A stretch of 64,000 nucleotides of DNA from a virus: the IMG/VR virus record IMGVR_UViG_3300020165_000009, one strand, 5' to 3'. Positions 26,352 through 61,913 of the stretch are shown in pieces. Under the pieces are notes generated by a model. It was not told the origin of the DNA. It did no database searches and worked only from the letters and a program-made list of their open reading frames with translations. The position numbers were made by a program, and so were the translations under genes. Each line of letters opens with the position of its first letter. Positions within the stretch are counted from its first letter, which is position 1.

Positions 26352-26592
26352 TTTTCTTATATTGTGCTTGTATTACTTTATAAACATCTCCTGGAACGGT
26401 TTTCATCAACTGTAATATCTCCTTATGGACTCCATTATAGAAATCCTCATGAGGTACAGATATATTTGCCATATCAGGTATTCTAAGAAAATTATACGAC
26501 AGTTCCTCTTCCTTAATGAAGACGAACGATTGACCAGCGTAATCACCGTGATGACACGCGTATATCTCTTTCTCTTTCGGCTTATCGGTCAT
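26332..26592 (-). CDS. Hypothetical protein
   Basis: 86-aa ORF overlapping both neighbours in an operon. Confidence 0.55.
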   Translation of the reverse strand: MTDKPKEKEIYACHHGDYAGQSFVFIKEEELSYNFLRIPDMANISVPHEDFYNGVHKEILQLMKTVPGDVYKVIQAQYKKNENTDN

Positions 26593-27556
26593 TACTAATA
26601 TAATAACCTATGTAGTCAGTTAATTCAACTACAAAGTCATTATATGTGCCTTGTTGCATGCCAATTTTCTTAGCCTTACTGCAATCGATGGCGTATCTAA
26701 AGTCATGACCCAGGCGATCCGCGACGAACTCTATATTATCGACAGGTTCTTTACCCATAATCTCACAGACTAGCTTAACAAGCTCTAAATTTGTTAACTC
26801 TACACCACTACCAATATTGTATACCCCGGCATCACCCTTAATAGCGACGTTCCAGACGGCTTCATTATGAGATGTAACGTGAATCCATTCCCGAACGTTA
26901 TTACCTTTACCATATACCGGAATCTTATTACCATTCTTTAAGGAGTCAATAATAGTCGGTATAAATTTCTCTTTATATTGATTAGGTCCGAAGTTATTAC
27001 AACAACGTGTTATCCCAATGTCTAAGCCATACGTCTTCATATATGATATACACATCAGGTCACTCGATGCCTTACTAGCAGCATAGGGAGAGCGTGGGGA
27101 TAACGGGGTCTCCTCAGTGAAGGCAGGGTCAGTTAGATCTAAGTGACCATACACCTCATCAGTAGATATATGAATGAATCTGCCATGACCTTTATTCCGG
27201 ACACGGTAACATTCTAGAAGATTCTGAGTACCTAATACATTCGATTCGACAAAAACAGTAGGTCCGGAAATGCTATTATCTACATGAGACTCAGCAGCAA
27301 AGTGAAAGATATAATCATATGGCTCATCTTCATCGAATCGCATCTCAAGCGCCGGTACATCCGTAATATCAATATCATAAGTCTCATCACAGTACGGGCT
27401 AGCATACTCTTTGTTTGACGCGTAACCGTTCTTGTCAATATTAACAATGTATACACTCTGCTGAAAAGTCTCACGTAGGTATTGTATAAAATTACCACCA
27501 ATAAACCCATAACCTCCTGTGACAAGTATTTTAGGTCTATTAATAGCCGTCGTCAT
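26582..27556 (-). CDS. rmlB: dTDP/NDP-glucose 4,6-dehydratase
   Basis: VTGGYGFIG, HFAAESHVDNSI, STDEVYG, SPYAASK, EKFIP, DRLGHDFRYA. Confidence 0.95.
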   Translation of the reverse strand: MTTAINRPKILVTGGYGFIGGNFIQYLRETFQQSVYIVNIDKNGYASNKEYASPYCDETYDIDITDVPALEMRFDEDEPYDYIFHFAAESHVDNSISGPTVFVESNVLGTQNLLECYRVRNKGHGRFIHISTDEVYGHLDLTDPAFTEETPLSPRSPYAASKASSDLMCISYMKTYGLDIGITRCCNNFGPNQYKEKFIPTIIDSLKNGNKIPVYGKGNNVREWIHVTSHNEAVWNVAIKGDAGVYNIGSGVELTNLELVKLVCEIMGKEPVDNIEFVADRLGHDFRYAIDCSKAKKIGMQQGTYNDFVVELTDYIGYYISNDR

Positions 27557-28061
27557 CGCGAATATTTGGGTTCTGCTTAATTGTTTGTTTTGTAATTAGG
27601 TCTTTAAATTTTGTAGTAGACCATTCATGTGACCGAGTAGTATATATAACTTCTGCTCTGAGCTCGCTACCTGTAAAATCTTTACCTAAATAATCTTCAC
27701 CTAATATACGAACATCGCAATCGAATGTCTTCATTAGCTCGTATAATTCTTCTTCCGTCTGGTACATATATACCTCATCAATATGCTTAATAGACATAAG
27801 CATTTTATAACGATCGTAATACGGTACGACAGGCTTATACTTTGTATTACGAGTAGCAGAAGGGTCGCCGTGTAGGAAGACAATAAACTTATCACAATGT
27901 CGCTTAGCTTCTTCAAACGTTGCAGTATAACCCGGGTGAATTATATCAAAGTTACCAGCTGTAAAGGCTGTAATGTCACCGGTCGGTTTGTATTTTTTGA
28001 TACGCTTATATACCTCACTTTTATGCTGGTCGATAAGTCGTTGTAATTGGTAATTATCCAT
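27540..28061 (-). CDS. Cytidylyltransferase (TagD/RfaE-like HxGH family)
   Basis: FTAGNFDIIHPGY, GEDY, R...WSTT. Confidence 0.85.
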   Translation of the reverse strand: MDNYQLQRLIDQHKSEVYKRIKKYKPTGDITAFTAGNFDIIHPGYTATFEEAKRHCDKFIVFLHGDPSATRNTKYKPVVPYYDRYKMLMSIKHIDEVYMYQTEEELYELMKTFDCDVRILGEDYLGKDFTGSELRAEVIYTTRSHEWSTTKFKDLITKQTIKQNPNIRDDDGY

Positions 28062-28073
28062 ATTTTTTTATGC

Positions 28074-28940
28074 TTATTTCTCTTCTTCTTGCAATATCTC
28101 TGTCATCGCCTGAAAGCTTTTTCGAATGTAATACTCTTCATCACCCCAATCAAAATCAAATACTAGTTTACTCTTATCGTTACTCAAGACGCAATTACTT
28201 CTACCACACTTCGTGTTTAAGTCTTCAAAATCCACAAACTCCCACTCTGGGTTAACTGTGAGTGGATATTCTTTAGATATCTCTATTACTTCTTTTGTAG
28301 TGAGTGCGTTACTATGAACCGCATTAAATATACCAGGTTCAAAATCATCGATAACAGTCTCAATAAACTCACACAGAACTGTTACATCTGTCTTACTGTT
28401 CCTATAATCAATCAGCTTACTATAGCCTTTTAGTTTATGTAACAGGTTTTTTGAATCTAGAGTACCTTCAATTGGCATTCTAATTCTAATGATGTTAGTA
28501 AAGTTGGTATCGAGGTTAAGTTCACCGGCATGCTTTGTCTTACTATAAAAACTAGAATCACTATCAAACATTCCGAAGTTAGGTTCATCATCTTCAGTAT
28601 ACTCTTTATCATACCCGGTGTAAATGCAGCCAGAACTAACATGAATTAGGTTCACTCTTTTAATCTTGCAAACCTCTTCAATATCTCGAGGTAGAATTGA
28701 ATTCTGAATAAAGCATTCTTCTTTTCGAACCTCACATTCATCAACATTAGGCTTACCGGTGAACCCTGCACAATTAACAACAGCATCAATAGCTGTCTTA
28801 TCTAAAAAATTAAAAAAGCGACTTTTATCGCCGTAGTCTAGCTCTTCTCTAGAGAAGTTGTATACTGTATGCTTCTCGCGAATCAAGTATTCAGTCAAGC
28901 GAGAGGCAATAAAGCCTTTTGATAGTACGAGTATATTCAT
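28074..28940 (-). CDS. NDP-4-keto-6-deoxyglucose 3,5-epimerase/4-reductase (RmlD-like, NRS/ER type)
   Basis: NCAGFTGKPNVDECE, SSGCIY, SFYSKTK, RIRMPI, RSNCVL. Confidence 0.85.
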   Translation of the reverse strand: MNILVLSKGFIASRLTEYLIREKHTVYNFSREELDYGDKSRFFNFLDKTAIDAVVNCAGFTGKPNVDECEVRKEECFIQNSILPRDIEEVCKIKRVNLIHVSSGCIYTGYDKEYTEDDEPNFGMFDSDSSFYSKTKHAGELNLDTNFTNIIRIRMPIEGTLDSKNLLHKLKGYSKLIDYRNSKTDVTVLCEFIETVIDDFEPGIFNAVHSNALTTKEVIEISKEYPLTVNPEWEFVDFEDLNTKCGRSNCVLSNDKSKLVFDFDWGDEEYYIRKSFQAMTEILQEEEK

Positions 28941-31091: not shown

Positions 31092-31949
31092 GCCTGCGAG
31101 TAGGTCTTTGATTTCAGCGTCGCTGTCATTAGCTGGTTGAGCAGGAGCTTCAGCCGGCGCAGCAGGTGTCGGCACACTTTCAACAGCAGGTACAGCATGA
31201 GTAGCTGCTGGTAATACACTCGGCTGTGAAGACTCTGCAGAGTCACCAGTACCAGCGATATGCTCATGCACCATCTGAACTAGCTCATCGTAACCCTTAA
31301 TAGTAAACACTTCATCTAGCTTATATAGATTACTCATCGCTGCTTCAGCTTTAGTATCATCCATACCAGGAATCTCAGATGGGAAACTAAATTTGGACGA
31401 CACATAGGTAGGATAATCGCCTTGCTTCTCTACAACGATCTTGAGGTTGCAGCCGTTAGGAGATACATCAAAGATCTTAGCACCAAGATCAGCTGCATCT
31501 TCACCTTCAATAGCGCTAGCAATAACTTTATGCAATTGCTTACCATAACGAAGGATCATTACCTTACCGTTATTATCAGGGTTAACAGGATCATTAACTA
31601 CATATGCGTTCGCCAGCCATTTTTCGGAACGATTAATCTTACTAGCCATGGCTTTTTCGTCGTCATTACCACGATAAAGCTTATAACGAGCTTCACCGAT
31701 AGGGTCTCGCTCACCAAAAGTCTGAGGCGAAATAGCATTTACATATTGACCGGTCGCAAAACTATTCCAGCCATGCTGGTAATAATGGAAGAAGGTCTTA
31801 CTAGCGTCACTAGCAAACGGTAATAGACGTACAGTATAGGTATTACCAGGCTCTGTACGTAAGATATTAGTAGGTCCGGAAGACTTCTCTTCAGTACTCG
31901 CAAGAGCGCCGCGGATAGATTCGAACATTGAATTTGATATATTTGTCAT
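31080..31949 (-). CDS. gp32: Single-stranded DNA-binding protein
   Basis: VRLLP, YVVNDPVNPDNNGKV...YGKQL, YVSSKF, acidic C-tail. Confidence 0.9.
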   Translation of the reverse strand: MTNISNSMFESIRGALASTEEKSSGPTNILRTEPGNTYTVRLLPFASDASKTFFHYYQHGWNSFATGQYVNAISPQTFGERDPIGEARYKLYRGNDDEKAMASKINRSEKWLANAYVVNDPVNPDNNGKVMILRYGKQLHKVIASAIEGEDAADLGAKIFDVSPNGCNLKIVVEKQGDYPTYVSSKFSFPSEIPGMDDTKAEAAMSNLYKLDEVFTIKGYDELVQMVHEHIAGTGDSAESSQPSVLPAATHAVPAVESVPTPAAPAEAPAQPANDSDAEIKDLLAGLDL

Positions 31950-31955
31950 AATTTA

Positions 31956-31971
31956 ATTATAGTTTAGTTCC
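31956..31971 (-). promoter_or_regulatory. GGAAC-N5-TATAAT promoter of gp32
   Basis: Minus strand GGAACtaaacTATAATtaaattATG. Confidence 0.7.
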
Positions 31972-33820: not shown

Positions 33821-35137
33821 CTATAGGCTCATCCTATCGAGCTTATCTGTCATCTCGCCAAAGTCACCATCGTCGTTATTGAGAGTATCATCCTCTGATA
33901 CGGTAAGAGTACCATAATCAATTCTCATTTCATTCCTACCGAAGTTAGCACCGAAACGATTCTTCATCATATGCAGGTTAATGATATTAAGTTCTTTATC
34001 TGTATCACTCTGAGTAATACCAACAATAACATCAGCTGTAGCGGCTAAGCCAATACTCTCACCAATAGTATCAAGAGTCGGTGACTCTGTATCGTAACCT
34101 GTACGGTTAAGCTGAGTAGCACTAATAATAGGGCAGTTGAATTTATAACTCAACGCTCTCACTTCTTCAGTAGCACACTTAATACGCTCATATAGATTAC
34201 TGTTAAGTGAACCTCTCAACAGGTTAATGTAATCCAGTACAATAGCGTCAATCTGAATACCTTTTAATTGAACGGTCTTGACATAGGAGGCAATCTGCTG
34301 AGCAGTAATAGTATTAGGAGGAAACTCTTTGATAATAAGTTTACCCATACCTTCCATGCTATCCATACTATGCTTTAACGTAGGTGTTTGAGATCTAAGA
34401 TCTGCAATAGGTATTTTAGTAATATCGGATGCAAGTCGACAAGCATACATAATTTCACTCATCTCAAGAGATAGTACTAATACGTTCTTACCTTTTCTAG
34501 CTAGATTGGTCGCAATATTACCTAGGAAAATACTCTTACCAACGTTCGTCTGGCCCGCGAATACATAAAACGCTCTTCCATTCGCTAAGAAGCCACCATT
34601 TAAGTTTTCGTCAAGCCAGTCCCATCCAGAAGATAGCGTCGGTTCATCTACACTCAACTCACGGGCCACCTCATCAATATCACCGAATAGATCAATACCA
34701 AGGTCGTCCTTCAACTCGATACTACAGCTCTTTTCAAACTTCTCGAGAATATAACTAGTATCAACCTTACCGTTAGTAATGTCTTCAGCTACATCCATCA
34801 TTGTATGGTAGATAGCTCTTTCCTTAAGGTATCTTTCAGTATTATCTAATAACTCATCTTTATTAAGATTCTTATCTATTTCATCGAAACTACCAGCAAC
34901 AGTCTTAAGAGCAGCTTTAACATCATCATTGACTAGATATGTCTTTAGTTCAGTGAGAGTCGGAGGCACACCTCTCTTATCATAAAAGCTCTTAATGATG
35001 GTAAAGAGTACCTTAATATTCTTATCGGCAATAATTTTAGGGTCTACATGACCGATGATCTCCGCAAGGTACTGCTCATCAGTTAAGCTTTTATATATTA
35101 AAACCTTCTCAAAATAATCTAAATCAATTTTTTCCAT
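33821..35137 (-). CDS. gp41: Replicative DnaB-like helicase
   Basis: AGQTNVGKS, SLEMSE, IKEFP, VLDYINL, SATQLNR, ESIGLAATAD, KNRFG. Confidence 0.95.
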   Translation of the reverse strand: MEKIDLDYFEKVLIYKSLTDEQYLAEIIGHVDPKIIADKNIKVLFTIIKSFYDKRGVPPTLTELKTYLVNDDVKAALKTVAGSFDEIDKNLNKDELLDNTERYLKERAIYHTMMDVAEDITNGKVDTSYILEKFEKSCSIELKDDLGIDLFGDIDEVARELSVDEPTLSSGWDWLDENLNGGFLANGRAFYVFAGQTNVGKSIFLGNIATNLARKGKNVLVLSLEMSEIMYACRLASDITKIPIADLRSQTPTLKHSMDSMEGMGKLIIKEFPPNTITAQQIASYVKTVQLKGIQIDAIVLDYINLLRGSLNSNLYERIKCATEEVRALSYKFNCPIISATQLNRTGYDTESPTLDTIGESIGLAATADVIVGITQSDTDKELNIINLHMMKNRFGANFGRNEMRIDYGTLTVSEDDTLNNDDGDFGEMTDKLDRMSL

Positions 35138-35153
35138 TATATTTTATGTTGTA

Positions 35154-35822
35154 CTACTTTCGCCACTTCTTAATAAAGTATGTCTCGCCGTCGTAAAATT
35201 CTTTATCAGGTTTAGTTAGTCCTGGGCTACTGTGAATGATCGGTATATCCACTACGCCTATTGTAACGTGGTTCCTATTACATTCAAGTGAGAAGTCTAA
35301 ATCATAATAATGAAACTTAGATGGATAAGATTCGTCAAATCTCACATTTTCAGGTAACTCTTTAATATTGATGCCAATAAAGACTCCGTCAATAACTAAA
35401 CATCTGCTCGGTACAGGTCCGAAGGAGGTATACATATATGAATCTTTATCTCCATGAGCTACACACCCTCTTTGATCTTCCCTTTTTGACATAATATGCC
35501 ATAAAGCAGGGCTACCAACTTTACAAGAAGTAGCACCGGCGAGCCCGAATACGGTGTATTGATCTGCAGCTTTAGATATAAGAGAGTATAAATCACGGGT
35601 ATTAATATGTACGTCATCATGTACCATAACTGCAATATCAATATTGTTTTTCCGTGCATCGTCAATAAAATTATTGTAACACTGTTGAAGGCTTTTAGTA
35701 TTTTTATCCTCGTATTGTACTGAAACTCCTAGGTGATCTAGCCCGTAACTCTCTAAACATTTATAGAGTACGCAGTCCTCCTTATTGCCTTTAGTCGCGC
35801 TATAAATTTTAATATTATTCAT
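35154..35822 (-). CDS. Glycosyltransferase-like protein (GT-A, family 2-like)
   Basis: YN...MVHDDV, GLAG, IDGVF, FDE...FHYYDLDFSL, IIHSSPG; start chosen at 35822. Confidence 0.75.
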   Translation of the reverse strand: MNNIKIYSATKGNKEDCVLYKCLESYGLDHLGVSVQYEDKNTKSLQQCYNNFIDDARKNNIDIAVMVHDDVHINTRDLYSLISKAADQYTVFGLAGATSCKVGSPALWHIMSKREDQRGCVAHGDKDSYMYTSFGPVPSRCLVIDGVFIGINIKELPENVRFDESYPSKFHYYDLDFSLECNRNHVTIGVVDIPIIHSSPGLTKPDKEFYDGETYFIKKWRK

Positions 35823-36153
35823 AATCTTTGCGATCATCCAGTTCTGGTTTGTTATCTCTATTCCAAATCATACCCATTACATTCCACAATACCGCCCCTA
35901 GGTGGTCTTCACTCTCATCACCTCTGAAGTCTTGCATTAGATGTCTCATTGCACTGTCATATAGTACAGAATGCTTCATACCTCTCCGCCAGTTATTTTC
36001 TCCATAGGCCTCAGCACCTTGCAAGTATCTCACCATAACCGATTCTAAGGCTTTGTGTGGTACTAAACTCATACGTACCTTACCTTCACAGTTATCACGT
36101 TGTGCGCCAGTTTCAAACTGACGAGGCTTCCCAGTTGTTTTCAGATCATCCAT
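35815..36153 (-). CDS. dATP/dGTP diphosphohydrolase-like protein (DUF5664-type)
   Basis: FETGAQRD...GK.RMSLVP...GAEAYGENNWRRG...DSAMRHL...EDHLGAVLWN. Confidence 0.8.
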   Translation of the reverse strand: MDDLKTTGKPRQFETGAQRDNCEGKVRMSLVPHKALESVMVRYLQGAEAYGENNWRRGMKHSVLYDSAMRHLMQDFRGDESEDHLGAVLWNVMGMIWNRDNKPELDDRKDYE

Positions 36154-36168
36154 ATAGAAATTATAATA

Positions 36169-36690
36169 TCACTTAGTAAAGAAATCAAGCCATAGATTAA
36201 GTGATATGTCCTTAAGTGTAGTAAACATTTCATCTAATGAGGCACATTCATTTTTTACACCATGTGACAACACTACCTTACCTTCATCAACACCGGGTGT
36301 AACGTGATGAATAACTGAGCCTATAGTAGAGTAGCAGCCCTCAAAGGCACGTACTTGCGGATCTTTACCTTTAAGTTGTGGATAGGATGTTATTAGTCCG
36401 GGATGGCCGTTATAAATTTTATACTCCTCGCATATCTCCTTAGGTATAATATTAAGCCATCCATGTAACGTAATAAAGCATGTGGATGGGTCACCAAAGC
36501 AATCTCTCAAGTACTGAACATCCTTAACGTGCCTCTTTGCAATTCGATGACCTACATCACTAATATTAAGTCTACGGTCAATCTTAGTATCATCTTTCTG
36601 ATCAAAAAATATAGAGGATGGATTAACTCCTCGTTCTACCAGGCTCGCTATCTCTGAACCAGTTTGTGAAAATAGTGCTATATGTCTCAT
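36169..36690 (-). CDS. Formyltransferase, PurN-like (possible DpdN-type base formylase)
   Basis: ALFSQTGS, LHGWLNIIP, NGHPGL...GKDP, GSVIHHVTPGVDEG. Confidence 0.85.
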   Translation of the reverse strand: MRHIALFSQTGSEIASLVERGVNPSSIFFDQKDDTKIDRRLNISDVGHRIAKRHVKDVQYLRDCFGDPSTCFITLHGWLNIIPKEICEEYKIYNGHPGLITSYPQLKGKDPQVRAFEGCYSTIGSVIHHVTPGVDEGKVVLSHGVKNECASLDEMFTTLKDISLNLWLDFFTK

Positions 36691-37367
36691 AGTGTTAAGA
36701 ACGGTGATTTATGATTGAATGTGGATACTATCTCGTACCCAGTGGGGGTATATTTGTATATGGTACCTTCCGCTACCTCTATATAACCATTGCCCTTAAT
36801 AGATGATACATGTGTTCCTTTATAGAATAAAGTACTACCCTGTCTAGCTACATATAAGTTATTACTCCAGGTATTATACATCCAAACAGCATAGGTACCC
36901 TCAAGTCGTTGCAGCACTCTTGTAATATTATTAATTTCACCTTCTATTACACTTTCACACGGGCCATCTTTATAATCATTCTCGGCTAGAAGGTATGGTA
37001 TAATATAACTATCTACCGGATTATGAGGTACAGCTCTACATTCTTGTTGTAACTCCTTAAAGTTAGTCAATACCCCGTTATGAGCTACTACCCAGTCACC
37101 TACCTCGAATGGGTGTGATGTATCGTCTTGGAAATACCTCTGACTGCTAGTAGGAGCTTGGTTATGCCCTAGGAATAATTTACAATCTGCAGGTACACCC
37201 ATATCTTCCATACAGAAAGAACCTTCTTTACGTATAATGCCGTAATGTGCCTTATCACCTTTAACAGATGCATACAATAATCCAGTAGCAAAGTTGCCTC
37301 TAGATTGGTTAGCTTCCTCTAACACCTCGAAGGTATTACTATCATCACTACAATATATTCCGCACAT
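36687..37367 (-). CDS. Class II (Ntn) glutamine amidotransferase
   Basis: Start chosen at 37367 (MCGIY, N-terminal Cys; TATAAT 6 nt upstream); GHNQAPT, HPF, AHNGVLTN, VDS. Confidence 0.9.
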   Translation of the reverse strand: MCGIYCSDDSNTFEVLEEANQSRGNFATGLLYASVKGDKAHYGIIRKEGSFCMEDMGVPADCKLFLGHNQAPTSSQRYFQDDTSHPFEVGDWVVAHNGVLTNFKELQQECRAVPHNPVDSYIIPYLLAENDYKDGPCESVIEGEINNITRVLQRLEGTYAVWMYNTWSNNLYVARQGSTLFYKGTHVSSIKGNGYIEVAEGTIYKYTPTGYEIVSTFNHKSPFLTL

Positions 37368-37413
37368 ACTCTTATTATAGTATAAAACCAGTGTAGAATC
37401 CATAAATATTATT

Positions 37414-39051
37414 ATGAATTTCGCTACATGGACAAACCGAGTAATTAATGAGAGCAGTGAACATTACTTTGCTGAAGAGCTTCTAGAGGAAAGTATTGCT
37501 AAGACACTGAAGCCAGTAGTTAATAAAATGAAGAAACTAAACATAGGTGTACCATACCGTGATGCTCGCTTATTTTTCTTCAATTACCTTCAAGATCAGC
37601 ACCCTGAAGTTATTCCAGCTGAATTTAAAGATTCAAAAAGAAAACCATCAGCAAAAGATGTTAATGCAATGGTAGGTCAGATTGCAATTGATCGCCCAGA
37701 AATGCTCGATACGTTTGCAAACGAATTCGAAGCATACGCCACCGGCAAGGATGACGAAAATCCAGATGAGGATAGAGTATCAGAGTTTCTTAGAATCGCG
37801 ATGATACTTAGAACTGGCAAAAACGTTCGGCCTAAAAAACATGAAGGTTATAAGACAAAGGAATATAGCAACTTATCAGCTGAGGAGATCAAAAACACAA
37901 CAATGGATGCAATTGAAAAGGCTCCAGTTGAAAAAGGAGTAGATCCTGATATTGGGGATGAGAAGCTTCTACTGAAAGTAGCATTCACTAAGGTACTTGC
38001 TCAACTCCAAGAGCTTGACGAGCTTGACCCTAAGGTGCTTGTCAATATCGCTGACACTGGCGCAAAAGTAGACAGCATTGATAAGTTCAAGCAGTTTTTA
38101 GATTACATGCACCAGTTCGAAGAGTACCATCTCGCCGAAGCATACTTACGTGATATGATCGCAGTTCTTGAAAGGGAAATGGCTAGTAAGGAAGACGAAG
38201 AGCTTGATGATTTTGATACAAGTCGTCATTCAGATGAAGATATTCCGGAATATTTAGAGGACTTGCATGCGATGAGGGCTGGTAAATTTCCTGGTATGAA
38301 GAAGAAGAGAAAGGTAGTTGATTATGATACATCTTATGCACCCGTTTACGACACAGAAGAAGACGCTGAAGGTGTCAGTGTAAAGCAAGAAGTACTTAAC
38401 GCTGTTAAACAAGGTGCTGGTGAGTTTGCTCATAAAGCAGCTGGTATGCTTCAGTCAGCTAAAGAGCTTCATGACCAATATAGCAGACAGGGTGATCAAG
38501 AAAGAGCTAGTATCACTAAGTCACTCGTTAATCACTTCACTGTACAATCAAAGTTTGATGAAGATGCAGAGGCAAAGCCGGACTATATGGATATGGACGG
38601 CGATGGTGACAAAGAAGAGTCGATGAAGAAAGCTGCTAAAGATAAGCACGCTGCATGTGAAGATGCCGAAAATGGGTGTGATTGTGGCATGTGTCCGGAT
38701 TGTGCTGATAATGCAAGATATGGTACCTCGGATGAAGAGCAGAAGAGCATTAAAGATGAATACCATCTTTCCCCAGAGCAGTATGAAAAAGCTCGAGGAA
38801 TGGCAGACTTTGATGCTAGTGAATGGTTCTTTAGCCCGTCACAGAAGCTATACTTTAGAAAAAGAGAAGGTGGTGAAGATCAAGAGCAATCAACTGCTCA
38901 ATATATGTCCAAGGCCCCTGTCGAAAAACGTGAAGAGTCTGAAGAAGCGAGAATGTCTCAACAAGAGATTAACCAAATGCTCGCTAACCGAGAGAGAGAA
39001 AGAGTTCAAAACCTTTACGCTCAACAAAGACTGCATACTCAAGGATATTAA
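37414..39051 (+). CDS. Large acidic modular late protein, putative polyprotein/internal head protein
   Basis: TAAATA upstream; leader MNFATWTNRVINE; repeated EDxE/SDEx linkers; DMDGDGD and CDCGMCPDC modules. Confidence 0.65.
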   Translation: MNFATWTNRVINESSEHYFAEELLEESIAKTLKPVVNKMKKLNIGVPYRDARLFFFNYLQDQHPEVIPAEFKDSKRKPSAKDVNAMVGQIAIDRPEMLDTFANEFEAYATGKDDENPDEDRVSEFLRIAMILRTGKNVRPKKHEGYKTKEYSNLSAEEIKNTTMDAIEKAPVEKGVDPDIGDEKLLLKVAFTKVLAQLQELDELDPKVLVNIADTGAKVDSIDKFKQFLDYMHQFEEYHLAEAYLRDMIAVLEREMASKEDEELDDFDTSRHSDEDIPEYLEDLHAMRAGKFPGMKKKRKVVDYDTSYAPVYDTEEDAEGVSVKQEVLNAVKQGAGEFAHKAAGMLQSAKELHDQYSRQGDQERASITKSLVNHFTVQSKFDEDAEAKPDYMDMDGDGDKEESMKKAAKDKHAACEDAENGCDCGMCPDCADNARYGTSDEEQKSIKDEYHLSPEQYEKARGMADFDASEWFFSPSQKLYFRKREGGEDQEQSTAQYMSKAPVEKREESEEARMSQQEINQMLANRERERVQNLYAQQRLHTQGY

Positions 39052-39061
39052 TTCATAACAC

Positions 39062-39430
39062 ATGTTAATAGCAAATACACTATACACTTATAAGGCAAAA
39101 GTAGTATCCATATATGATGGTGATTCCTTGAGATTGGATATTGATCTCGGATTCAAAGTCGTTATGCAAAACCAGCGCGTTCGATTACTCGGAATAGATA
39201 CACCGGAAGTGAGGGGTGAGGAGCGTGAATCTGGTATAGCTGCGAGGGATTACATGAGAGATTTATTATCAGATAAAGAAATTATAATTACCACTATAAA
39301 GGACAAGTACGGTAAGTATGGTAGGTGGCTGGTAGAGGTGTTTATACCAGACGAAACTCAAGAGAGTGGATTTCTAAATGTTAATCAACATTTAATTAGC
39401 GAGGGCTTAGCTGTCCCATACGGGGAATGA
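39062..39430 (+). CDS. Thermonuclease (SNase-like)
   Basis: VSIYDGDS...RVRLLGIDTPE...DKYGKYGRWL...NQHLISEGLA. Confidence 0.9.
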   Translation: MLIANTLYTYKAKVVSIYDGDSLRLDIDLGFKVVMQNQRVRLLGIDTPEVRGEERESGIAARDYMRDLLSDKEIIITTIKDKYGKYGRWLVEVFIPDETQESGFLNVNQHLISEGLAVPYGE

Positions 39431-39699
39431 GTGAGTACGAGAAAAATAAATACTATTGCGGTGCGTGGTGGACGCCGAAATGGGTTCGTAGGATTTTAAG
39501 TACTAGGTTTAACGCTAGTTGTAAAGTACATGATCTAGATTATGATACTACGAGGTTTAGTAGAGAAGAGGCAGATACTAGATTTTTACTTCATATGATA
39601 AGACAGGCAAAGAGCTCTATATTCTGGGAAGTTATAGCTACGTTGTTTTATATCTCAGTTAGACTTATTGGTAAGCTATCGTGGGGTAAAAAAGATTAG
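39427..39699 (+). CDS. Small protein with PLA2/DUF1353-like CxxHDxxY motif
   Basis: YYCG...FNASCKVHDLDY...REEADTRF. Confidence 0.55.
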   Translation: MSEYEKNKYYCGAWWTPKWVRRILSTRFNASCKVHDLDYDTTRFSREEADTRFLLHMIRQAKSSIFWEVIATLFYISVRLIGKLSWGKKD

Positions 39700-40436
39700 T
39701 TGATAGACTTACAACCATTCTTCTCATATATAGCGTCTAACTTATCCTGCTGTATATAATCTAAAGGGTCCCTCAGCTTAGCTTCAACGAAGCCTTGTAG
39801 CCTTAAGCTGCTGCTAGCAGACTCAACGTCACAAGGGTACTCGCCTGAATAGCAGGTATATGTATTACTAAAGTTTACCCCAAGGGAGACGCCGTCTAAG
39901 ACGATATCTTTTTTAGACATTTCAATAAGAGGAGCAACTACTGTAATTCTATTCTCTCTATTAAGTGCTGTTACGTCATTTAACTGATTTACAAACTCTT
40001 CAGATCCATCCCAGTAACCGGCTAAACTATCTGCTTGCGCGGCCCCGTACCATACCTCACCGGCACCTACAGCCTCAGCATAAGAGCAAAGCATACTCAA
40101 GAACATTAAATTACGGAATGGTACATAACTCTTAGGTTGAGCTTCACCCATCATATCATTTACATTCGGGGTATCAATACTATCATTAGTGAGTGACGAT
40201 ACTGGCGCCATCTCACGTATAAAAGTTGTATCAAGTAATTTATTATGAAATACTTTATCTGGGTATAAGTTCTTAATATCAGCTAGCTGCTTTTCAACGC
40301 ACTCTAGTTCTCGTTTATGACGCTGCCCATAATCAAAGCTAATAGTATGTACTTCATCAGCTAGCCTCGCAGCTTTAAACAACAGTACAGCAGAATCCAT
40401 CCCACCACTGAGAGTTACAACAATTTTTCTTTTCAT
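39696..40436 (-). CDS. queC: QueC-like 7-cyano-7-deazaguanine synthase
   Basis: LSGGMDS, FDYGQRH, YVPFRNLMFLS, APL...K, TYTCY. Confidence 0.9.
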   Translation of the reverse strand: MKRKIVVTLSGGMDSAVLLFKAARLADEVHTISFDYGQRHKRELECVEKQLADIKNLYPDKVFHNKLLDTTFIREMAPVSSLTNDSIDTPNVNDMMGEAQPKSYVPFRNLMFLSMLCSYAEAVGAGEVWYGAAQADSLAGYWDGSEEFVNQLNDVTALNRENRITVVAPLIEMSKKDIVLDGVSLGVNFSNTYTCYSGEYPCDVESASSSLRLQGFVEAKLRDPLDYIQQDKLDAIYEKNGCKSIN

Positions 40437-40457
40437 TCTTTAATTATATACTAGTTA

Positions 40458-41576
40458 CTACTCAACTGCTATCACAGCATCCTCAGTTACTTCGTCTGGA
40501 ATAATCTCATCTGTATCACCTACATCTTTATTACTGTACTTCCATTCTTTCTTAATCTTCTCTTCTACAACCGGTATAATAGTCTTATCCCATAGTTCAG
40601 TATCATCTTTCCACTTACTATAATAGCCGAGTTTCTTACCATCTGGTAATTGATATGTTGCGCCAGTCTGTATAACTGCTCCAAGACCTACCGCGAGATC
40701 CAATAAGCCAAAGTACTTGTGCAGGCCACGATCAAATGACAGGTACATCTCACCTTGCAAGTACTGCTTAACGAAACGATTCTTAACGGTCAGTGCTCGT
40801 AGAATAACACCAGAGTAGCTCTTTTGACCTACAGCTAATTTGCCGTCAGTGTTCTTGTCTTCCTTAACCGGTTTACGAGCTAGCTGTATAGTAACAGAAG
40901 GTAGATATACAGTAGCAGTACCACCTGGCATTGCTTTTACAAGCGACGGAAACATTGCTGATGGGTCTTCATAAATGTGGTTAGTGGCAAGAATAGTAGT
41001 TTTAGTTAAGCCGGATAGTTGAGTAAGTGTACGTAATAGCGACTTCATTGCTTTAGCTCTACTACCCATATCAGCACTTACATTACCCTTTGTCTGACGA
41101 TTGATCTGCAATTGACTTTCCATATTACCTAGAGAGTCAATAGCGATTATAAATTTACCTTCCTGACCCTTCTCCTTTACTTTAGTTAAGAAGTCGAAAA
41201 TCGTGTTGCGGCATTCTTCAATACTAAAGACTGGTACATACTTCACCTTACTAACATCTAGACCTAACGCTTCAGCACCATCCCTATCGATAGCGTTCTC
41301 ACTATCAAAGATAACTGGAATTAAACCTTCCTTTTGAGCATTAGCTAGAATCTTTTGCAGAATAAACGATTTACCGGTCATACTCGGACCAGCTAGTAGG
41401 GTCATTCTATTCTTTGGAATACCGCCGTGGAGTGAACCTGATACAATACCGTTAAGTACCATAGAACCAGTATCGATCCAACCGTCTACGTTGCTAATAG
41501 CGCTCTCATTTAAGAAGGACGCGTAAGGATTAGACTTATCAATTACAGATAAAATATCGTCAATTTCTTTACTCAT
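40458..41576 (-). CDS. uvsX: RecA-like recombinase
   Basis: DTGSMVLN...SG...GGIP, AGPSMTGKS, FDSE, IDSLGN, DMG.RAK, KNRF. Confidence 0.95.
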   Translation of the reverse strand: MSKEIDDILSVIDKSNPYASFLNESAISNVDGWIDTGSMVLNGIVSGSLHGGIPKNRMTLLAGPSMTGKSFILQKILANAQKEGLIPVIFDSENAIDRDGAEALGLDVSKVKYVPVFSIEECRNTIFDFLTKVKEKGQEGKFIIAIDSLGNMESQLQINRQTKGNVSADMGSRAKAMKSLLRTLTQLSGLTKTTILATNHIYEDPSAMFPSLVKAMPGGTATVYLPSVTIQLARKPVKEDKNTDGKLAVGQKSYSGVILRALTVKNRFVKQYLQGEMYLSFDRGLHKYFGLLDLAVGLGAVIQTGATYQLPDGKKLGYYSKWKDDTELWDKTIIPVVEEKIKKEWKYSNKDVGDTDEIIPDEVTEDAVIAVE

Positions 41577-41584
41577 ATACCTAA

Positions 41585-42427
41585 TTATAGTATACCTTTC
41601 GCCTTGTTCAAGTAATAGTTTAGCTCTTTCGTATATACGGGTACAAAGTTTTTAATGCCACCTTGACCAGACCATATACACGCATCTACTCTAAACTCTG
41701 TATTATCTGGACCACCTTCATCTTTATATCTTAATGGCACCTTTAAGCACGTAGGGTTAAATAACTTGCACGCATCATTAAATACAGACTCGTCTGATGA
41801 TACATTAAATAAATCAATTTTTTCAGCACAAAACTTTATAAATTTACGGCTTACCTCTGTATTTCTAACAACAATTAAACCACCTGTTTCGAGTTCAAAA
41901 TCCTCGCCGAGTTTAACTTTTTCAAAACGATTAAAATTATTATCGTCAACCTTGACCGCGACATCTGTCACGACACCAATATCCGACTTATACTCGTGCA
42001 TAGCATCATAGAGATCATTAATATCTTTACGTACTATTGCATCTACGTCACTATATATATAAACTTCATCCACCTCATCTACCATCAACGTATTGAGGGT
42101 ATCATATTTTATACCTGTACAATAACTTGCATGCTCACTATATACTCGTTTAAAAATTTGATAATCATGAATCTTAGGTAAGTTTCTTAAATGTTCATCA
42201 GTAATATAATGCTTGTCTGCCCAATCAGGGTATAATATAGTAGGCTTCGTATTTAACTCTATATTATCAAATATATATTTAACGTTATTAAAATTTATGA
42301 GAGCGGATTCATCAACATTGACGCATCTACATATAATTTTAACATTTGGACTATTATCTAATGCAGACTGTGCAAAAGCGTTAAATAGGGGTAGATATTT
42401 TTCATCACTCGTACATACTATAGTCAT
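41585..42427 (-). CDS. Nucleotide-diphospho-sugar glycosyltransferase (GT-A)
   Basis: TSDEKYLP N-terminus, DxD motif YIYSDVDAIVRKD, GLIVVRNT, DESVFN. Confidence 0.7.
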   Translation of the reverse strand: MTIVCTSDEKYLPLFNAFAQSALDNSPNVKIICRCVNVDESALINFNNVKYIFDNIELNTKPTILYPDWADKHYITDEHLRNLPKIHDYQIFKRVYSEHASYCTGIKYDTLNTLMVDEVDEVYIYSDVDAIVRKDINDLYDAMHEYKSDIGVVTDVAVKVDDNNFNRFEKVKLGEDFELETGGLIVVRNTEVSRKFIKFCAEKIDLFNVSSDESVFNDACKLFNPTCLKVPLRYKDEGGPDNTEFRVDACIWSGQGGIKNFVPVYTKELNYYLNKAKGIL

Positions 42428-55129: not shown

Positions 55130-56182
55130 ATGAGCTGGAAATCATTAACACAAGTATACTTACAAGAGGCTGCCTTAAAGAATGTTACTAAACTAACACG
55201 GCAACAACTAGTCGGTGAGGACGTCTCAATATACGCTAAAGAAAACGATAAAACAGAGCATATAGGCGACGTGAGTAGAGAGTACTATGATAGTGTTCTC
55301 AAAAATAGAGTTGAGCTAGGTTCGCATGAAAATGTTAGCTTACGTAAGGTAGTAGAGCAGCGTTTAGATAAATGTAACGGTAATATTGATAACAATGCTG
55401 ACATATGGCAAAATTATATGTTAGAAGGTGCTTTCGATATGTCAGCTGATAATTTTGATAGTAGTGAAGACTATTTACTATCTCTAGTTGAGCAGAGTAC
55501 ACCGTTTTACCTAACTGATTTTATAAAAGCCAACTGGCCTGCTGCAGATGTAGTAAACAAATACTATGAATCTGCATTTACCAGTATGCCACAAGCTCCA
55601 GTTTTTGGCAGCCCGGGCGCAGGTGAATTATACTTAGCTTATTTTGCAAATGGCAGTAAGCCTAAGAAAGGTGATTTGAGTGTAGGCGGAGTTGAAATTG
55701 AACTTAAAGGGCCAGGTGGTCGTATTTTTAAGACACCAAAAATAGTTAATGATTTTAGCGACCTGCAGAAAGATTATAAAGATGAAGATGAATTATTAGA
55801 TAATATTACTGAATATATTGCTAAACTATCACAAACTGCGCCACATAAATCATTGATTCGCGAAATGGTAGCATTATTTAAAGAATCAATGATTGAAGAG
55901 CATGCCTACTTCAGAGAACGCGGAAAGATGAGACCAGGTAACGAGCTCGTCTATATAGGGGGTTTAGCTCAATTATATGCATATAAGCAAGTACAGGGAT
56001 TTGACATCTTTATGTCCTTCTCCACACAAAAAGATGGTAGAATACTCTTCAAGCCAGTAAATATGAAGAGTATCAATAATCTAGTAGGGCTGCATAAGCT
56101 AATTACAAGAGACACATTCTATAAATTTGGTGTTAACCGGGATGGTTCCGGTTGGTCACTAGATAGAACTCAACCAAAATGA
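55130..56182 (+). CDS. PD-(D/E)xK nuclease-like protein with capsid-targeting-like leader
   Basis: SPGAGELYL...KGDLSVGGVEIELKG catalytic-type motif; leader MSWKSLTQVYLQE. Confidence 0.6.
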   Translation: MSWKSLTQVYLQEAALKNVTKLTRQQLVGEDVSIYAKENDKTEHIGDVSREYYDSVLKNRVELGSHENVSLRKVVEQRLDKCNGNIDNNADIWQNYMLEGAFDMSADNFDSSEDYLLSLVEQSTPFYLTDFIKANWPAADVVNKYYESAFTSMPQAPVFGSPGAGELYLAYFANGSKPKKGDLSVGGVEIELKGPGGRIFKTPKIVNDFSDLQKDYKDEDELLDNITEYIAKLSQTAPHKSLIREMVALFKESMIEEHAYFRERGKMRPGNELVYIGGLAQLYAYKQVQGFDIFMSFSTQKDGRILFKPVNMKSINNLVGLHKLITRDTFYKFGVNRDGSGWSLDRTQPK

Positions 56183-57999
56183 AAACATTCAAGCAATACT
56201 ATAACACTATCCTAAATGAAGGTGGTGCCGCAGGTCATATGGCTCATCCATTTGACCTACCTCAAGTTAAGACAGGTAAGGATTTAGTGAGCTTCTTCGA
56301 TAGAGCTGTTAGTTCTATTAAGACAAACCCACCTTCTGTTAAGATTGACGGTGTGAATGCTAGTTTTAGACTCATTGATACACCTGAAGGTAAGGAATTC
56401 GCACTCGACAGAGGTAGTATGAAGCCTCTAGACCTTGAAGGTATCACAATCGATAAGCTTGTAGCTAGATTCGGCGAGGGACATGGAATGGTTAATGCAG
56501 GCCGTACACTATTGACCATTATGAATGAGTCTATAGATGAAATTACACCCGAACTCAAGCAATTAGGTATGTGGGATAATGCAAATAGATTTTTTAATAC
56601 AGAGTTCGTGCAAGGTACTACTAATGTACTACAGTATGATAATGATTTCCTCGCGATCCATGGTATTAACGAGTTCTATCAAGCGACTCCTAAGAGAAGA
56701 GCCAGTAAAGAGGTTGAGTACAATCCAAAGGTACTTGATTCACTTATTGAAAAGCTTGATAAGACTGCAGCAGAATATAATTTTAAAGTATATGGTAGTG
56801 TACCTGCCACTTTAACTAAGCAGCCTAACTACGCACACGTGCTTAGTAAGAACTTTAACGTTAATGTAGGTACAGAAAGAATTTCAAAGCCCTTGCGCGA
56901 TTATTTAAATGATGCTAATAACCCATTCGGGGATAAGATCACATTACAGGATGGTAAAAAGGTAGGAGCTCTTAGTAAGTTCGTCTATCTACAGATTCTT
57001 AACGGTGTACCACTCGATACATTTATAAAAGATGAAGCTGATCACCAAAAGGCTATTGATGGAGCGGCAATATACCACGCTACTAGACTTTTAGGTGACG
57101 AGCTGCTAACAACCTTAACATCCGACATGGGTGACGTTAAGTACCACGAAGGTATTGTTATAAGAGACCCAAAATTTCATAGCTCACCAGTCAAGGTTAC
57201 CGGTGAATTCATTATTGGCGGTATGTCATCACAGTTTAGAAAAGAAGATGAAGAAGTGACGCCTTACTATTCTAATTACGTCACGGAACCACCAGTCAGA
57301 GGAGATTTCTTCGGTAGAGGTCGCTTTAAACAAAGTGTTGATGCAATAGGTGAGAGCTTTGATGCTGTCTACAACAGTATAATGCTAAGAGAGTTTGAAG
57401 AGCCTGACAATGAGCGCGTTGTTGTTATATACCCCGGTAGATTTCATCCGTTTCATAAGGGTCATTCATCAATATACAATAAATTGACGCAAAAATTTCC
57501 TTATGCCGACGTATATATTACTACTTCTGGTAAAACTGATGAAGATACATCACCATTTACGTTTGACGAAAAGAAAGAGATGATGATATCAGCTGGTGTC
57601 GATGCTGATAAGATCGTTCAAGTAGCATCTCCTTATATTGCTAAAGAGATAACTGAAAGATATGATGGAGATAATACTAAAATCATCTACGTAGTATCTC
57701 AGAAAGATATGGAGGGTTCATCAGCTAGATTCAAATTTGGCACTAAGCGAGACGGTACACCTAGCTACTTTCAACCTTTTGAGAGTGTAGGTGAGAGTGA
57801 GTATATGTCAAAGCACGGCTATGTTGATGTACTACCGACTATGGACTTCAAGATTAACGATAGAAGCGTAAGAAGTGCTTCAGAAATCAGAGATATGTAT
57901 AAGAATGCTGATGATAGTCAAAGAGAAGATCTTATCCATAGTTTATACGGTTCTAAGGACCGGAAGATAAAGAATATCTTTGATAATAAGCTAGTTTAA
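56179..57999 (+). CDS. Fusion of a ligase-like nucleotidyltransferase domain and an HxGH cytidylyl/adenylyltransferase domain
   Basis: N-part GHMAHPFD, KIDGVN, EGIVIR...VK; C-part YPGRFHPFHKGH and SASEIR; leader MKTFKQYYNTILNE. Confidence 0.75.
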   Translation: MKTFKQYYNTILNEGGAAGHMAHPFDLPQVKTGKDLVSFFDRAVSSIKTNPPSVKIDGVNASFRLIDTPEGKEFALDRGSMKPLDLEGITIDKLVARFGEGHGMVNAGRTLLTIMNESIDEITPELKQLGMWDNANRFFNTEFVQGTTNVLQYDNDFLAIHGINEFYQATPKRRASKEVEYNPKVLDSLIEKLDKTAAEYNFKVYGSVPATLTKQPNYAHVLSKNFNVNVGTERISKPLRDYLNDANNPFGDKITLQDGKKVGALSKFVYLQILNGVPLDTFIKDEADHQKAIDGAAIYHATRLLGDELLTTLTSDMGDVKYHEGIVIRDPKFHSSPVKVTGEFIIGGMSSQFRKEDEEVTPYYSNYVTEPPVRGDFFGRGRFKQSVDAIGESFDAVYNSIMLREFEEPDNERVVVIYPGRFHPFHKGHSSIYNKLTQKFPYADVYITTSGKTDEDTSPFTFDEKKEMMISAGVDADKIVQVASPYIAKEITERYDGDNTKIIYVVSQKDMEGSSARFKFGTKRDGTPSYFQPFESVGESEYMSKHGYVDVLPTMDFKINDRSVRSASEIRDMYKNADDSQREDLIHSLYGSKDRKIKNIFDNKLV

Positions 58000-61022: not shown

Positions 61023-61913
61023 ATGCACTTTGAATATGTATTACAGGAAGTAAGCAAGCGCTTTTTATATACTATAAATTACACGGATGATTCCGGAGAA
61101 CGGTTATACGCGCTAGTAACAACATCACCTGATATAGCTCCGGAGGAGGTGGTGTCTGAAGTACACAGCATTACAGAACTCAAGGAATTTGTCTTTTGGG
61201 ATTTGTTTAGGAAAAAAATATTACGCCTGCCTACTGCGGAAGGTGATATTAGTTTCACCTTCCATAATTTGCACCTATTACCTGGTGATGATGTCGCTGA
61301 GCTTCTAAACATCACGGATCAGCAGATCATAGATGAGCATAATAAAGAAATTATTAATATACACAATAAGCGACGTCAGGTCATTATAGATATACAAACT
61401 GAATTAAGTGCTGAGTATAATATGGTATTTACAGAAGAAGATACAATGTGCTATATAAATCTTATTAATACACACCGATTTGCGGAGTTCGAGCCAGGTA
61501 GGCATGCATACCTGATCAAGTTGTGTATGCTACTCAAAAGCACACCCTATAAGCTCCTAAGAGGGCCGATGGATATGCAGGATTTTGAGAGAGCAAAAGA
61601 TCAGTGGTTATTTGTAATTAAGAGTCATGTTGAAAAAGCTAAGGCTCAGCTCGATAATGAGGCTGCCTCACTAGACGGTAAAGCAGATACATATGAATAC
61701 GATTTAGAAGAGATTGAAATTATAAAAAACTTACTTGATGAGATTCCCGAGGAGTTTAGAGATGACCTAGATGAGTGCACAACATATAAAGACCTGCTCG
61801 AAGCATGGCCACCGCTATTACTACCAGCGCCACAGTTTATTATTGATCCAAAAACGGGAGTAAATGTTTTCGCAGCACTCGAAAAACAGATCGAATGGAA
61901 GCTTTATGATTGA
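61023..61913 (+). CDS. Hypothetical protein
   Basis: 296 aa; TAAATA upstream; C-terminal WPPLLLPAP; heads the modification operon. Confidence 0.6.
   Translation: MHFEYVLQEVSKRFLYTINYTDDSGERLYALVTTSPDIAPEEVVSEVHSITELKEFVFWDLFRKKILRLPTAEGDISFTFHNLHLLPGDDVAELLNITDQQIIDEHNKEIINIHNKRRQVIIDIQTELSAEYNMVFTEEDTMCYINLINTHRFAEFEPGRHAYLIKLCMLLKSTPYKLLRGPMDMQDFERAKDQWLFVIKSHVEKAKAQLDNEAASLDGKADTYEYDLEEIEIIKNLLDEIPEEFRDDLDECTTYKDLLEAWPPLLLPAPQFIIDPKTGVNVFAALEKQIEWKLYD

Follow-up and report, generated by a model that had tools for sequence, protein, structure and literature searches.

A stand-alone glutaminase, a DpdN-type formyltransferase and a GT-A glycosyltransferase linked to QueC in a T4-like marine phage: a probable tailoring arm of a DpdA3-type 7-deazaguanine DNA replacement system

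To date, only one cultured phage, Flavobacterium phage vB_FspM_immuto, is known to make 7-(formylamino)methyl-7-deazaguanine (fdPreQ1). In the DNA of immuto_2-6A this base replaces 100% of the guanine, and Cui, Hutinet and colleagues gave the name DpdN to a protein whose formyltransferase activity is a prediction (PMC10516641). Other 7-deazaguanine pathways, in phage 9g and in Crenarchaeota, involve Gat-QueC, in which a class-II glutaminase with an N-terminal cysteine is fused to QueC; in phage 9g such fusions yield archaeosine in DNA (dG+) (PMC6884629). In the Z-genome (2-aminoadenine) phages, the diphosphohydrolase MazZ, as studied in S-2L, supplies dGMP to PurZ and does not merely remove dGTP (PMC8342488). 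Here we describe a locus that has features in common with each of these systems. It spans positions 35,154-40,436 of a 64,000-nucleotide stretch of viral DNA (IMG/VR record IMGVR_UViG_3300020165_000009; this whole stretch is referred to below as the window), and it comprises genes for QueC, a stand-alone glutaminase (Gat), a formyltransferase, a diphosphohydrolase and a glycosyltransferase of the GT-A fold. We think it probable, though well short of certain, that these genes are the tailoring arm of a DpdA3-type 7-deazaguanine DNA replacement system with fdPreQ1 as its end product. The window represents the formyl (DpdN) form of the locus, and therefore the predicted product is a base that has already been described; what is new is the triad of QueC, stand-alone Gat and GT-A, and the diphosphohydrolase that accompanies it.

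The link to immuto is made by the formyltransferase, which exhibits 41.5% identity to immuto26A_67 (DpdN, YP_010114479) over 97% coverage (E-value 2e-32, and 5e-41 in the reciprocal blastp with immuto DpdN). The search covered 50,697 cultured-phage records, in which full-length homologs are limited to the immuto isolates and are annotated there as 'phosphoribosylglycinamide formyltransferase', while the remaining matches are partial, with E-values of 1e-4 or weaker. The catalytic residues Asn, His and Asp of PurN structures in the Protein Data Bank (PDB) are retained as N94, H96 and D135 in the alignment. Judging from these comparisons, the protein is an ortholog of DpdN; a preliminary description of the locus, which took formylation of dPreQ1 by PurN paralogs (DpdN) as established, was right about the family and too firm about the activity, which has only been predicted (PMC10516641). 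The isoelectric point of the protein (6.4) gives no hint of DNA binding, which is not decisive. In immuto, the DpdN gene is flanked by DpdA3 and by a kinase-QueF pair, and genes for FolE, QueD, QueE, a phosphoribosyltransferase (PRTase) and an NTP pyrophosphohydrolase lie nearby. The two phages are otherwise quite different, immuto being an Immutovirus with a family-A polymerase and the window phage being T4-like with a family-B polymerase, and in the window DpdN has left the DpdA3-kinase-QueF cluster and is encoded in an operon, with Gat on one side and the replicative helicase on the other.

A tblastn search with the immuto proteins found no FolE, QueD, QueE, QueF or DpdA in the window, as had been noted before. 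Most of them are present in its relatives. A 93-kb contig (G002), whose QueC and polymerase are 70% and 79% identical to those of the window, encodes a DpdA3-like protein (262 amino acids, 49% identity to DpdA3 of immuto) and an AAA_28 kinase, as well as a QueF of the bimodular type in which both the ESKSIKLY motif and the catalytic Cys are present; QueD and a PRTase are encoded elsewhere on the same contig. Two further relatives, G005 (93% complete) and G008 (complete, with terminal repeats), also encode FolE and QueD, and in G008 a weak tblastn match to QueE lies beside them. In the relatives the DpdA3, kinase and QueF proteins are 47-49%, 38% and 46% identical to their immuto counterparts and the order of the genes is retained. 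It was immuto DpdA3 that allowed the transglycosylase to be found, as the Pfam TGT model (PF01702), from which DpdA3 is too divergent, detected nothing in five relatives. Because the relatives carry DpdA3, the kinase, QueF, FolE and QueD, fdPreQ1 is the most likely product here. The earlier characterization of the locus as a 7-deazaguanine-type cluster is supported, and the suggestion of a formylated base is well supported by a sole full-length cultured homolog that comes from a phage with fully fdPreQ1-substituted DNA, and by DpdA3, the kinase and QueF in the relatives.

According to the scheme that we propose, GTP would be converted to 7-carboxy-7-deazaguanine (CDG) by FolE, QueD and QueE, whose genes would lie elsewhere in the genome, and QueC would turn CDG into preQ0 with ammonia released from glutamine by Gat, the two proteins acting as a split glutamine-dependent QueC. 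QueF, also encoded elsewhere, would reduce preQ0 to preQ1, the DpdN-type enzyme would place a formyl on the aminomethyl group, and DpdA3, again encoded elsewhere, would replace guanine in DNA with the finished base. A purine (d)NTP pool would probably be adjusted by the MazZ-like diphosphohydrolase, and GT-A would transfer a sugar to some acceptor.

QueC of the window scores 156.7 bits against TIGR00364 (cut-off 150.3) and exhibits the PP-loop motif SGGMDS at residues 10-15. The four-cysteine zinc site (C...CxxCxxC) is, however, incomplete, with two Cys left in the window protein (TCYSGEYPCDVESASSS), one in the wider clade and none in immuto QueC (L091:1495-2376). In this viral subfamily, which includes the whole clade and immuto, CxxCxxC is replaced by ADAxTPSSS or CDVESASSS, the latter being found in the window. 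Since immuto, with the same loss, makes a preQ1-derived base, the zinc site is evidently dispensable and the loss of its CxxCxxC half tolerated.

The glutaminase was originally called as an open reading frame (ORF) at 36687-37403 (GATase_6, 9e-9). As an N-terminal Met-Cys is obligatory, we placed its start at Met13 (37367), which yields the N-terminus MCGI, and MC[GA]I is found in 45 of 45 orthologs. Residues C1, R23-G24, N97-G98 and D119 are invariant among the 34 orthologs aligned; they include Cys1, the oxyanion Asn-Gly and the Asp that binds the amino group of glutamine, so that the glutaminase site is intact. Profile searches of the PDB retrieve the glutaminase domains of GlmS and PurF, and the predicted structure (predicted local distance difference test, pLDDT, 90.5) is matched by Foldseek to GlmS, GFAT-1 and PurF with E-values from 1e-12 to 1e-9. 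Gat is therefore a complete class-II glutaminase domain and nothing more. Because a lone glutaminase domain needs an acceptor enzyme, QueC uses ammonia and Gat-QueC fusions are known, Gat is most likely a glutaminase subunit that would supply ammonia to QueC, a role that fits a nitrogen-poor habitat. Here the two are separate ORFs, 2.3 kb apart, with three opposite-strand genes between them, unlike in the fusion proteins; in distant relatives they are adjacent and unfused, QueC preceding Gat.

The precedent of phage 9g suggests another product, in which Gat and QueC would together be a split archaeosine synthase that converts preQ0 to the amidine G+, so that the DNA would contain dG+. Besides the published activity of the fusions (PMC6884629), the PHROG to which they belong, phrog_10428, matches both Gat and QueC of the window. 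Nevertheless, we regard this outcome as very improbable, since the relatives of the window, and likewise pf16 (see below), carry a bona fide bimodular QueF, which needs preQ0, and DpdN, encoded in the same operon as Gat, needs preQ1; the unfused state of the two proteins also speaks against it. Unlike in Gat-QueC systems, the pair co-occurs with QueF (in relatives) and DpdN, and therefore its output is likely to be preQ0 rather than G+.

A stand-alone Gat next to QueC has also been found in a cultured phage, Pseudomonas phage pf16 (Chakrabartyvirus; L128, KU873925.1 33696-46289), where FolE, a 440-amino acid DpdA2, QueF, QueC, Gat, a MazG/PRA-PH-like protein, polB, a dNMP kinase and UvsX are encoded one after another, all of them in genes annotated as hypothetical proteins. 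The supplement of the 2019 survey by Hutinet lists DpdA2 and other pathway genes of pf16 and does not list Gat. As in the window lineage, the stand-alone Gat (25% identity; profile E-value 1e-18), directly after QueC, and an NTP pyrophosphohydrolase gene lie within a T4-like replication module. On the other hand, pf16 encodes DpdA2 instead of DpdA3, has neither DpdN nor GT-A, and its pyrophosphohydrolase belongs to the PRA-PH/MazG family and not to PF18909; it offers an independent case in favor of a link between Gat and QueC. We also considered the product of gene 76 of pf16 as a possible GT-A and rejected it (hhalign probability 3.6%), as it is a MazG-like protein.

To compare the loci of relatives, we gathered them via QueC, via GT-A and via a distant Gat representative, which gave 105 non-redundant loci with both Gat and GT-A; another distant Gat representative retrieved no loci, and the genomic contexts of distant Gat homologs come from IMG/VR only. 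QueC is present in all 76 of the loci that reach far enough upstream, and there is no locus spanning uvsX to gene 41 that lacks QueC, Gat or GT-A. The three genes directly adjoin one another in the clades that are most distant, where the stop of QueC abuts the start of Gat and Gat overlaps GT-A by 4 nt. The slot between Gat and GT-A, in contrast to the triad itself, differs among loci: in 57 it is empty, in 26 it is occupied by a GNAT acetyltransferase and the diphosphohydrolase, in nine by GNAT alone and in 13, including the window, by DpdN with the diphosphohydrolase. The GNAT protein (Pfam E-values from 4e-7 to 2e-5) is thus encoded in 35 non-redundant loci (e.g. L006, L011, L060, L063, L064, L067, L135 and L137), and no slot contains both DpdN and GNAT. 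In clades where the slot is empty, DpdN can instead lie beside the kinase-QueF pair (G004, G005), as in immuto, and in the complete genome G008 neither DpdN nor the diphosphohydrolase was found. Because GNAT occupies exactly the place of DpdN and never accompanies it, the DNA of these sister phages is predicted to contain an N-acetyl-preQ1 base, which has not been described so far. Other genes are also found in this region. The slot of a 221-kb contig (L172:5356-5841; compare G006, L118:6710-7111) holds a gene that resembles those of nucleoside 2-deoxyribosyltransferases (PF15891, 3e-32), enzymes that could swap the base of a deoxynucleoside or deoxynucleotide. A sulfatase-like gene (DUF1501, 2e-108) is inserted between GT-A and the helicase in G008 (L073; minus strand, C1:13187-14446 in locus coordinates).

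Several observations weigh against the pathway as outlined above. DpdA3, QueF, FolE, QueD and QueE have been assigned to the genome of the window from its relatives, the enzymatic role of DpdN is a prediction, and QueC of the window lacks two of its four canonical zinc cysteines. In sequence, Gat is not especially close to the Gat half of Gat-QueC, and in many clades it overlaps GT-A by 4 nt, hence GT-A, instead of QueC, could be its partner. Immuto, in which neither Gat nor GT-A is found at the sensitivity of profile searches, makes fdPreQ1 all the same, and therefore the published pathway leaves both genes unexplained. Moreover, synteny in T4-like phages can last without functional coupling.

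The diphosphohydrolase, like Gat and GT-A, is an addition relative to immuto. It matches PF18909 (dGTP_diPhyd_N) over profile positions 3-99 of 99, as well as phrog_18716 (1e-27) and phrog_801, 'dATP/dGTP pyrophosphohydrolase' (1e-18), and it thus has the family label dATP/dGTP diphosphohydrolase (PF18909, phrog_801) in common with MazZ. In contrast to the MazZ cluster of Z-genome phages, neither PurZ (adenylosuccinate synthetase) nor an HD-type DatZ was found among the approximately 60 proteins of the window scanned against Pfam, and no PDB sequence, including the solved MazZ of S-2L, is matched by the protein. Unlike MazZ of the Z-genome phages, PF18909 proteins are common in phages without known DNA modification, with homologs in 400 cultured-phage records, mostly of actinophages (Arthrobacter and Mycobacterium phages). 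The gene is missing in 66 of the 105 related loci. Within the lineage it occurs only alongside an acyltransferase in the slot (39 of the 48 loci with an acyltransferase and none of the 57 with an empty slot), which may reflect a single insertion event. The preliminary description stated that such enzymes remove canonical purine dNTPs, which is imprecise, given that MazZ of S-2L feeds dGMP to PurZ (PMC8342488).

The presence of this enzyme bears on the level at which the base is installed. It could be that the PRTase, the kinase or kinases and ribonucleotide reductase turn the deazaguanine into a deoxynucleotide, or that it is exchanged for the base of dGMP, and that the phage polymerase then incorporates the modified dNTP. 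The MazZ-like enzyme would hydrolyze dGTP, either to prevent its incorporation or to provide dGMP, and the final base would still be fdPreQ1. Beyond the PF18909 protein in the operon, the genomic neighborhoods agree with such a route: in pf16 the MazG-like and dNMP kinase genes flank polB right after QueC-Gat, in immuto the NTP pyrophosphohydrolase adjoins DpdA3 and a PRTase and kinase are present too, the kinase is attached to DpdA3 and QueF in all relatives, where a PRTase homolog is also found, and the slot of L172 holds the deoxyribosyltransferase-like gene. DpdA3 phages, furthermore, reach 100% replacement, and DpdA3 has not been made to work in E. coli (PMC10516641). We nonetheless consider installation from the pool unlikely, because DpdA3 with the TGT fold is present in the relatives and all cases are read in the literature as post-replicative (PMC10516641), because PF18909 proteins are so frequent in actinophages without known modification, and because the gene is absent from most of the loci, including that of the complete genome G008. 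In addition, the protein bears no similarity to the solved MazZ. The earlier proposal that the base might be installed at the dNTP-pool level is therefore only circumstantially supported, and insertion of fdPreQ1 into DNA by DpdA3 remains our preferred view.

The glycosyltransferase is predicted to have the GT-A fold (pLDDT 93.6), Rossmann-like and with a DxD-type metal and nucleotide-sugar site, and it is matched by many GT-A enzymes, best of all by UDP-bound majastridin (2qgi/2nxv; E-value 4e-11, TM-score 0.71). Residues H73-D74-D75 and H202 are invariant, the His-Asp-Asp triplet corresponding to the metal and nucleotide-sugar site. Majastridin, encoded by ORF6 of the atp operon of Rhodobacter blasticus (PF13712), is similar in size, fold and DxD-type motif, but it is only 17% identical and functionally uncharacterized, whereas the phage protein has a fixed place between Gat and the helicase. 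More than 1100 homologs were found in metagenomes; tblastn found none in cultured phages, profile-level searches none in immuto or pf16, and there was no PDB sequence match. A library of viral folds gave generic GT-A matches only, which reduces the likeness to TAGT to the generic fold, and the isoelectric point (approximately 6.2-6.8) provides no hint of DNA binding and is not decisive. Because sugar-nucleotide-type genes flank GT-A in near relatives (362- and 145-amino acid cytidylyltransferase-like proteins and a mannose-6-phosphate-isomerase-type cupin), the protein is very probably a real sugar transferase with a donor made by the phage.

These same neighbors are compatible with a sugar-tailoring cassette unrelated to deazaguanine, in which Gat, the N-acyltransferase and GT-A would make and transfer an N-acylated amino sugar to DNA, to a virion protein or to a structure of the host, and the formyltransferase would be a sugar N-formyltransferase. 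Alternation of formyl and acetyl groups is typical of amino-sugar pathways, the formyltransferase has a weak PDB match to the sugar formyltransferase PseJ (E-value 0.015), Gat resembles the glutaminase domain of GlmS, and further sugar-nucleotide genes are present in the window at 26582-28940. Yet the only full-length cultured homolog of the formyltransferase is DpdN, which in immuto, G004 and G005 is embedded in the DpdA3-kinase-QueF cluster; no isomerase or synthase domain is attached to Gat; in pf16, which lacks GT-A, Gat is paired with QueC; and no hydroxymethylase that would create an acceptor in DNA was found in the relatives. A cassette of this kind is, in our judgment, improbable. Hydroxymethylcytosine or hydroxymethyluracil as the acceptor of GT-A was dropped in particular, since none of the relatives G002, G004, G005, G006 and G008 encodes a hydroxymethylase of the thymidylate synthase (ThyA) family.

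GT-A might instead act on the deazaguanine itself, placing a sugar on the aminomethyl nitrogen or on N2, with the swappable acyltransferase (DpdN or GNAT) capping the nitrogen. If so, virion DNA would contain a glycosylated, N-acylated 7-deazaguanine, so far undescribed, and Gat, the acyltransferase, the diphosphohydrolase and GT-A would all belong to one pathway. The sole precedent for glycosylation of a 7-deazapurine base is HuiG of huimycin biosynthesis (bioRxiv 10.64898/2026.04.15.718813), and we consider this possibility decidedly doubtful. As regards the glycosylated base envisaged earlier, the observations point neither way: GT-A exhibits a true UDP-sugar-type fold and is strictly co-inherited with QueC and Gat, and immuto makes fdPreQ1 without GT-A.

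Other sugar-related genes of the window deserve mention. A second glycosyltransferase (GT8/Nucleotid_trans-like; 41585-42427, minus strand) is encoded directly upstream of uvsX, the place of the beta-glucosyltransferase gene in T4; its only syntenic homolog is found in L007 (46%), and two weaker matches (26-28%) lie elsewhere on the contig of G002. Sugar-nucleotide genes are located at 26582-28940 (minus strand) and at 56179-57999 and 61864-62778 (plus strand), and they encode an epimerase of the GDP-mannose-4,6-dehydratase family, a cytidylyltransferase-like protein, an RmlD-like reductase, a 606-amino acid protein that includes a cytidylyltransferase domain, and an aminotransferase of class I/II. 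The sugar donors of the phage glycosyltransferases may come from these enzymes.

The window as a whole is the replication and late-gene region of a T4-like marine myovirus, AT-rich (approximately 38% GC), which encodes TerL, gp32, a gp41-type helicase, UvsX, a family-B polymerase, gp46/47-like proteins, a gp55-like sigma factor, a UvsW-like protein and UvsY. All five minus-strand ORFs of the locus are present where they had been reported, and Pfam, PHROG and TIGR00364 profiles confirm their families (Table 1).

Table 1. Positions of the genes and sequence elements of the locus in the window
Feature	Position	Strand	Remarks
QueC	39696..40436	-	viral subtype without zinc cluster; PF06508 2e-53, TIGR00364
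Gat, stand-alone class-II (Ntn) glutamine amidotransferase	36687..37367	-	GATase_6/7; start corrected to Met13
DpdN-type formyltransferase (predicted preQ1/dPreQ1 N-formyltransferase)	36169..36690	-	Formyl_trans_N 1.8e-8
PF18909 (DUF5664) MazZ-like NTP diphosphohydrolase domain protein, 112 amino acids	35815..36153	-	PF18909 8e-20
Small GT-A glycosyltransferase (PF13712, majastridin-like)	35154..35837	-	Glyco_tranf_2_5 3e-9
Insert between QueC and Gat: 545-amino acid orphan, SNase-type nuclease, 90-amino acid protein	37414..39699	+	
gp41-type DnaB-like replicative helicase, downstream flank	33821..35137	-	DnaB_C 8e-25; phrog_19 3e-71
UvsX recombinase, upstream flank	40458..41576	-	RecA 5e-17; phrog_97 3e-58
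TATAAT-N6-ATG box, QueC start	40434..40448	-	
TATAAT-N6-ATG box, Gat Met13	37365..37379	-	
TATAAT-N6-ATG box, diphosphohydrolase	36151..36165	-	
TATAAT-N6-ATG box, gp32	31947..31961	-	

Gat, the formyltransferase, the diphosphohydrolase and GT-A run directly into the helicase gene, with successive junctions of 4 (the start of the formyltransferase overlapping the stop of Gat), 15, 23 and 16 nt (the last being the distance from GT-A to the start of the helicase). QueC, which the preliminary description had counted in the same run, is set apart by the three plus-strand genes. The TATAAT boxes that it reported before QueC, Gat and the diphosphohydrolase do exist, each exactly 6 nt 5' of the ATG, and gp32 has another. 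TATAAT-N6-ATG occurs six times, where 2.4 +/- 1.7 occurrences are expected, and four of the six are at gene starts. Generic promoter and terminator scans of the region gave no signal above chance, and since the generic sigma-70 scan (28 hits versus 24.7 +/- 4.5 expected) showed no excess, the promoter function of the boxes remains putative. With almost no leader between TATAAT and ATG, the element may drive transcription of mRNAs that have a very short leader or none, or else serve as a combined start signal.

The plus-strand insert is outside the pathway. In the relatives, an opposite-strand variable gene is found at its position or between Gat and GT-A. The SNase-type nuclease (39062-39699) and the 90-amino acid protein are present in the nearest relatives only (L002 and L003, and the latter protein also in L004), and therefore they look like a recent insertion. 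When the 5.3-kb stretch was compared with cultured phages by blastn and megablast, the only match was one of 95 nt to a cyanophage, within the gene of the 545-amino acid orphan.

Complete replacement of guanine by 7-deazaguanines is among the strongest known anti-restriction strategies of phages. The chemistry of fdPreQ1, known so far from a single cultured phage, is probably used by an abundant group of uncultured marine T4-like phages, in which three conserved genes, those of Gat, the diphosphohydrolase and GT-A, lie beyond the published pathway. The stand-alone glutaminase beside QueC is a component that has not been described before and lends itself to testing, and its presence in the cultured phage pf16 offers a test of the pairing. 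The diphosphohydrolase bears on the question whether DpdA3 systems work on DNA or on the nucleotide pool, while the exchange of formyl- for acetyltransferase in the sister phages predicts a new DNA base. DNA of this kind resists many restriction enzymes, and it may bias methods of sequencing-library preparation and nanopore base-calling in marine viromes.

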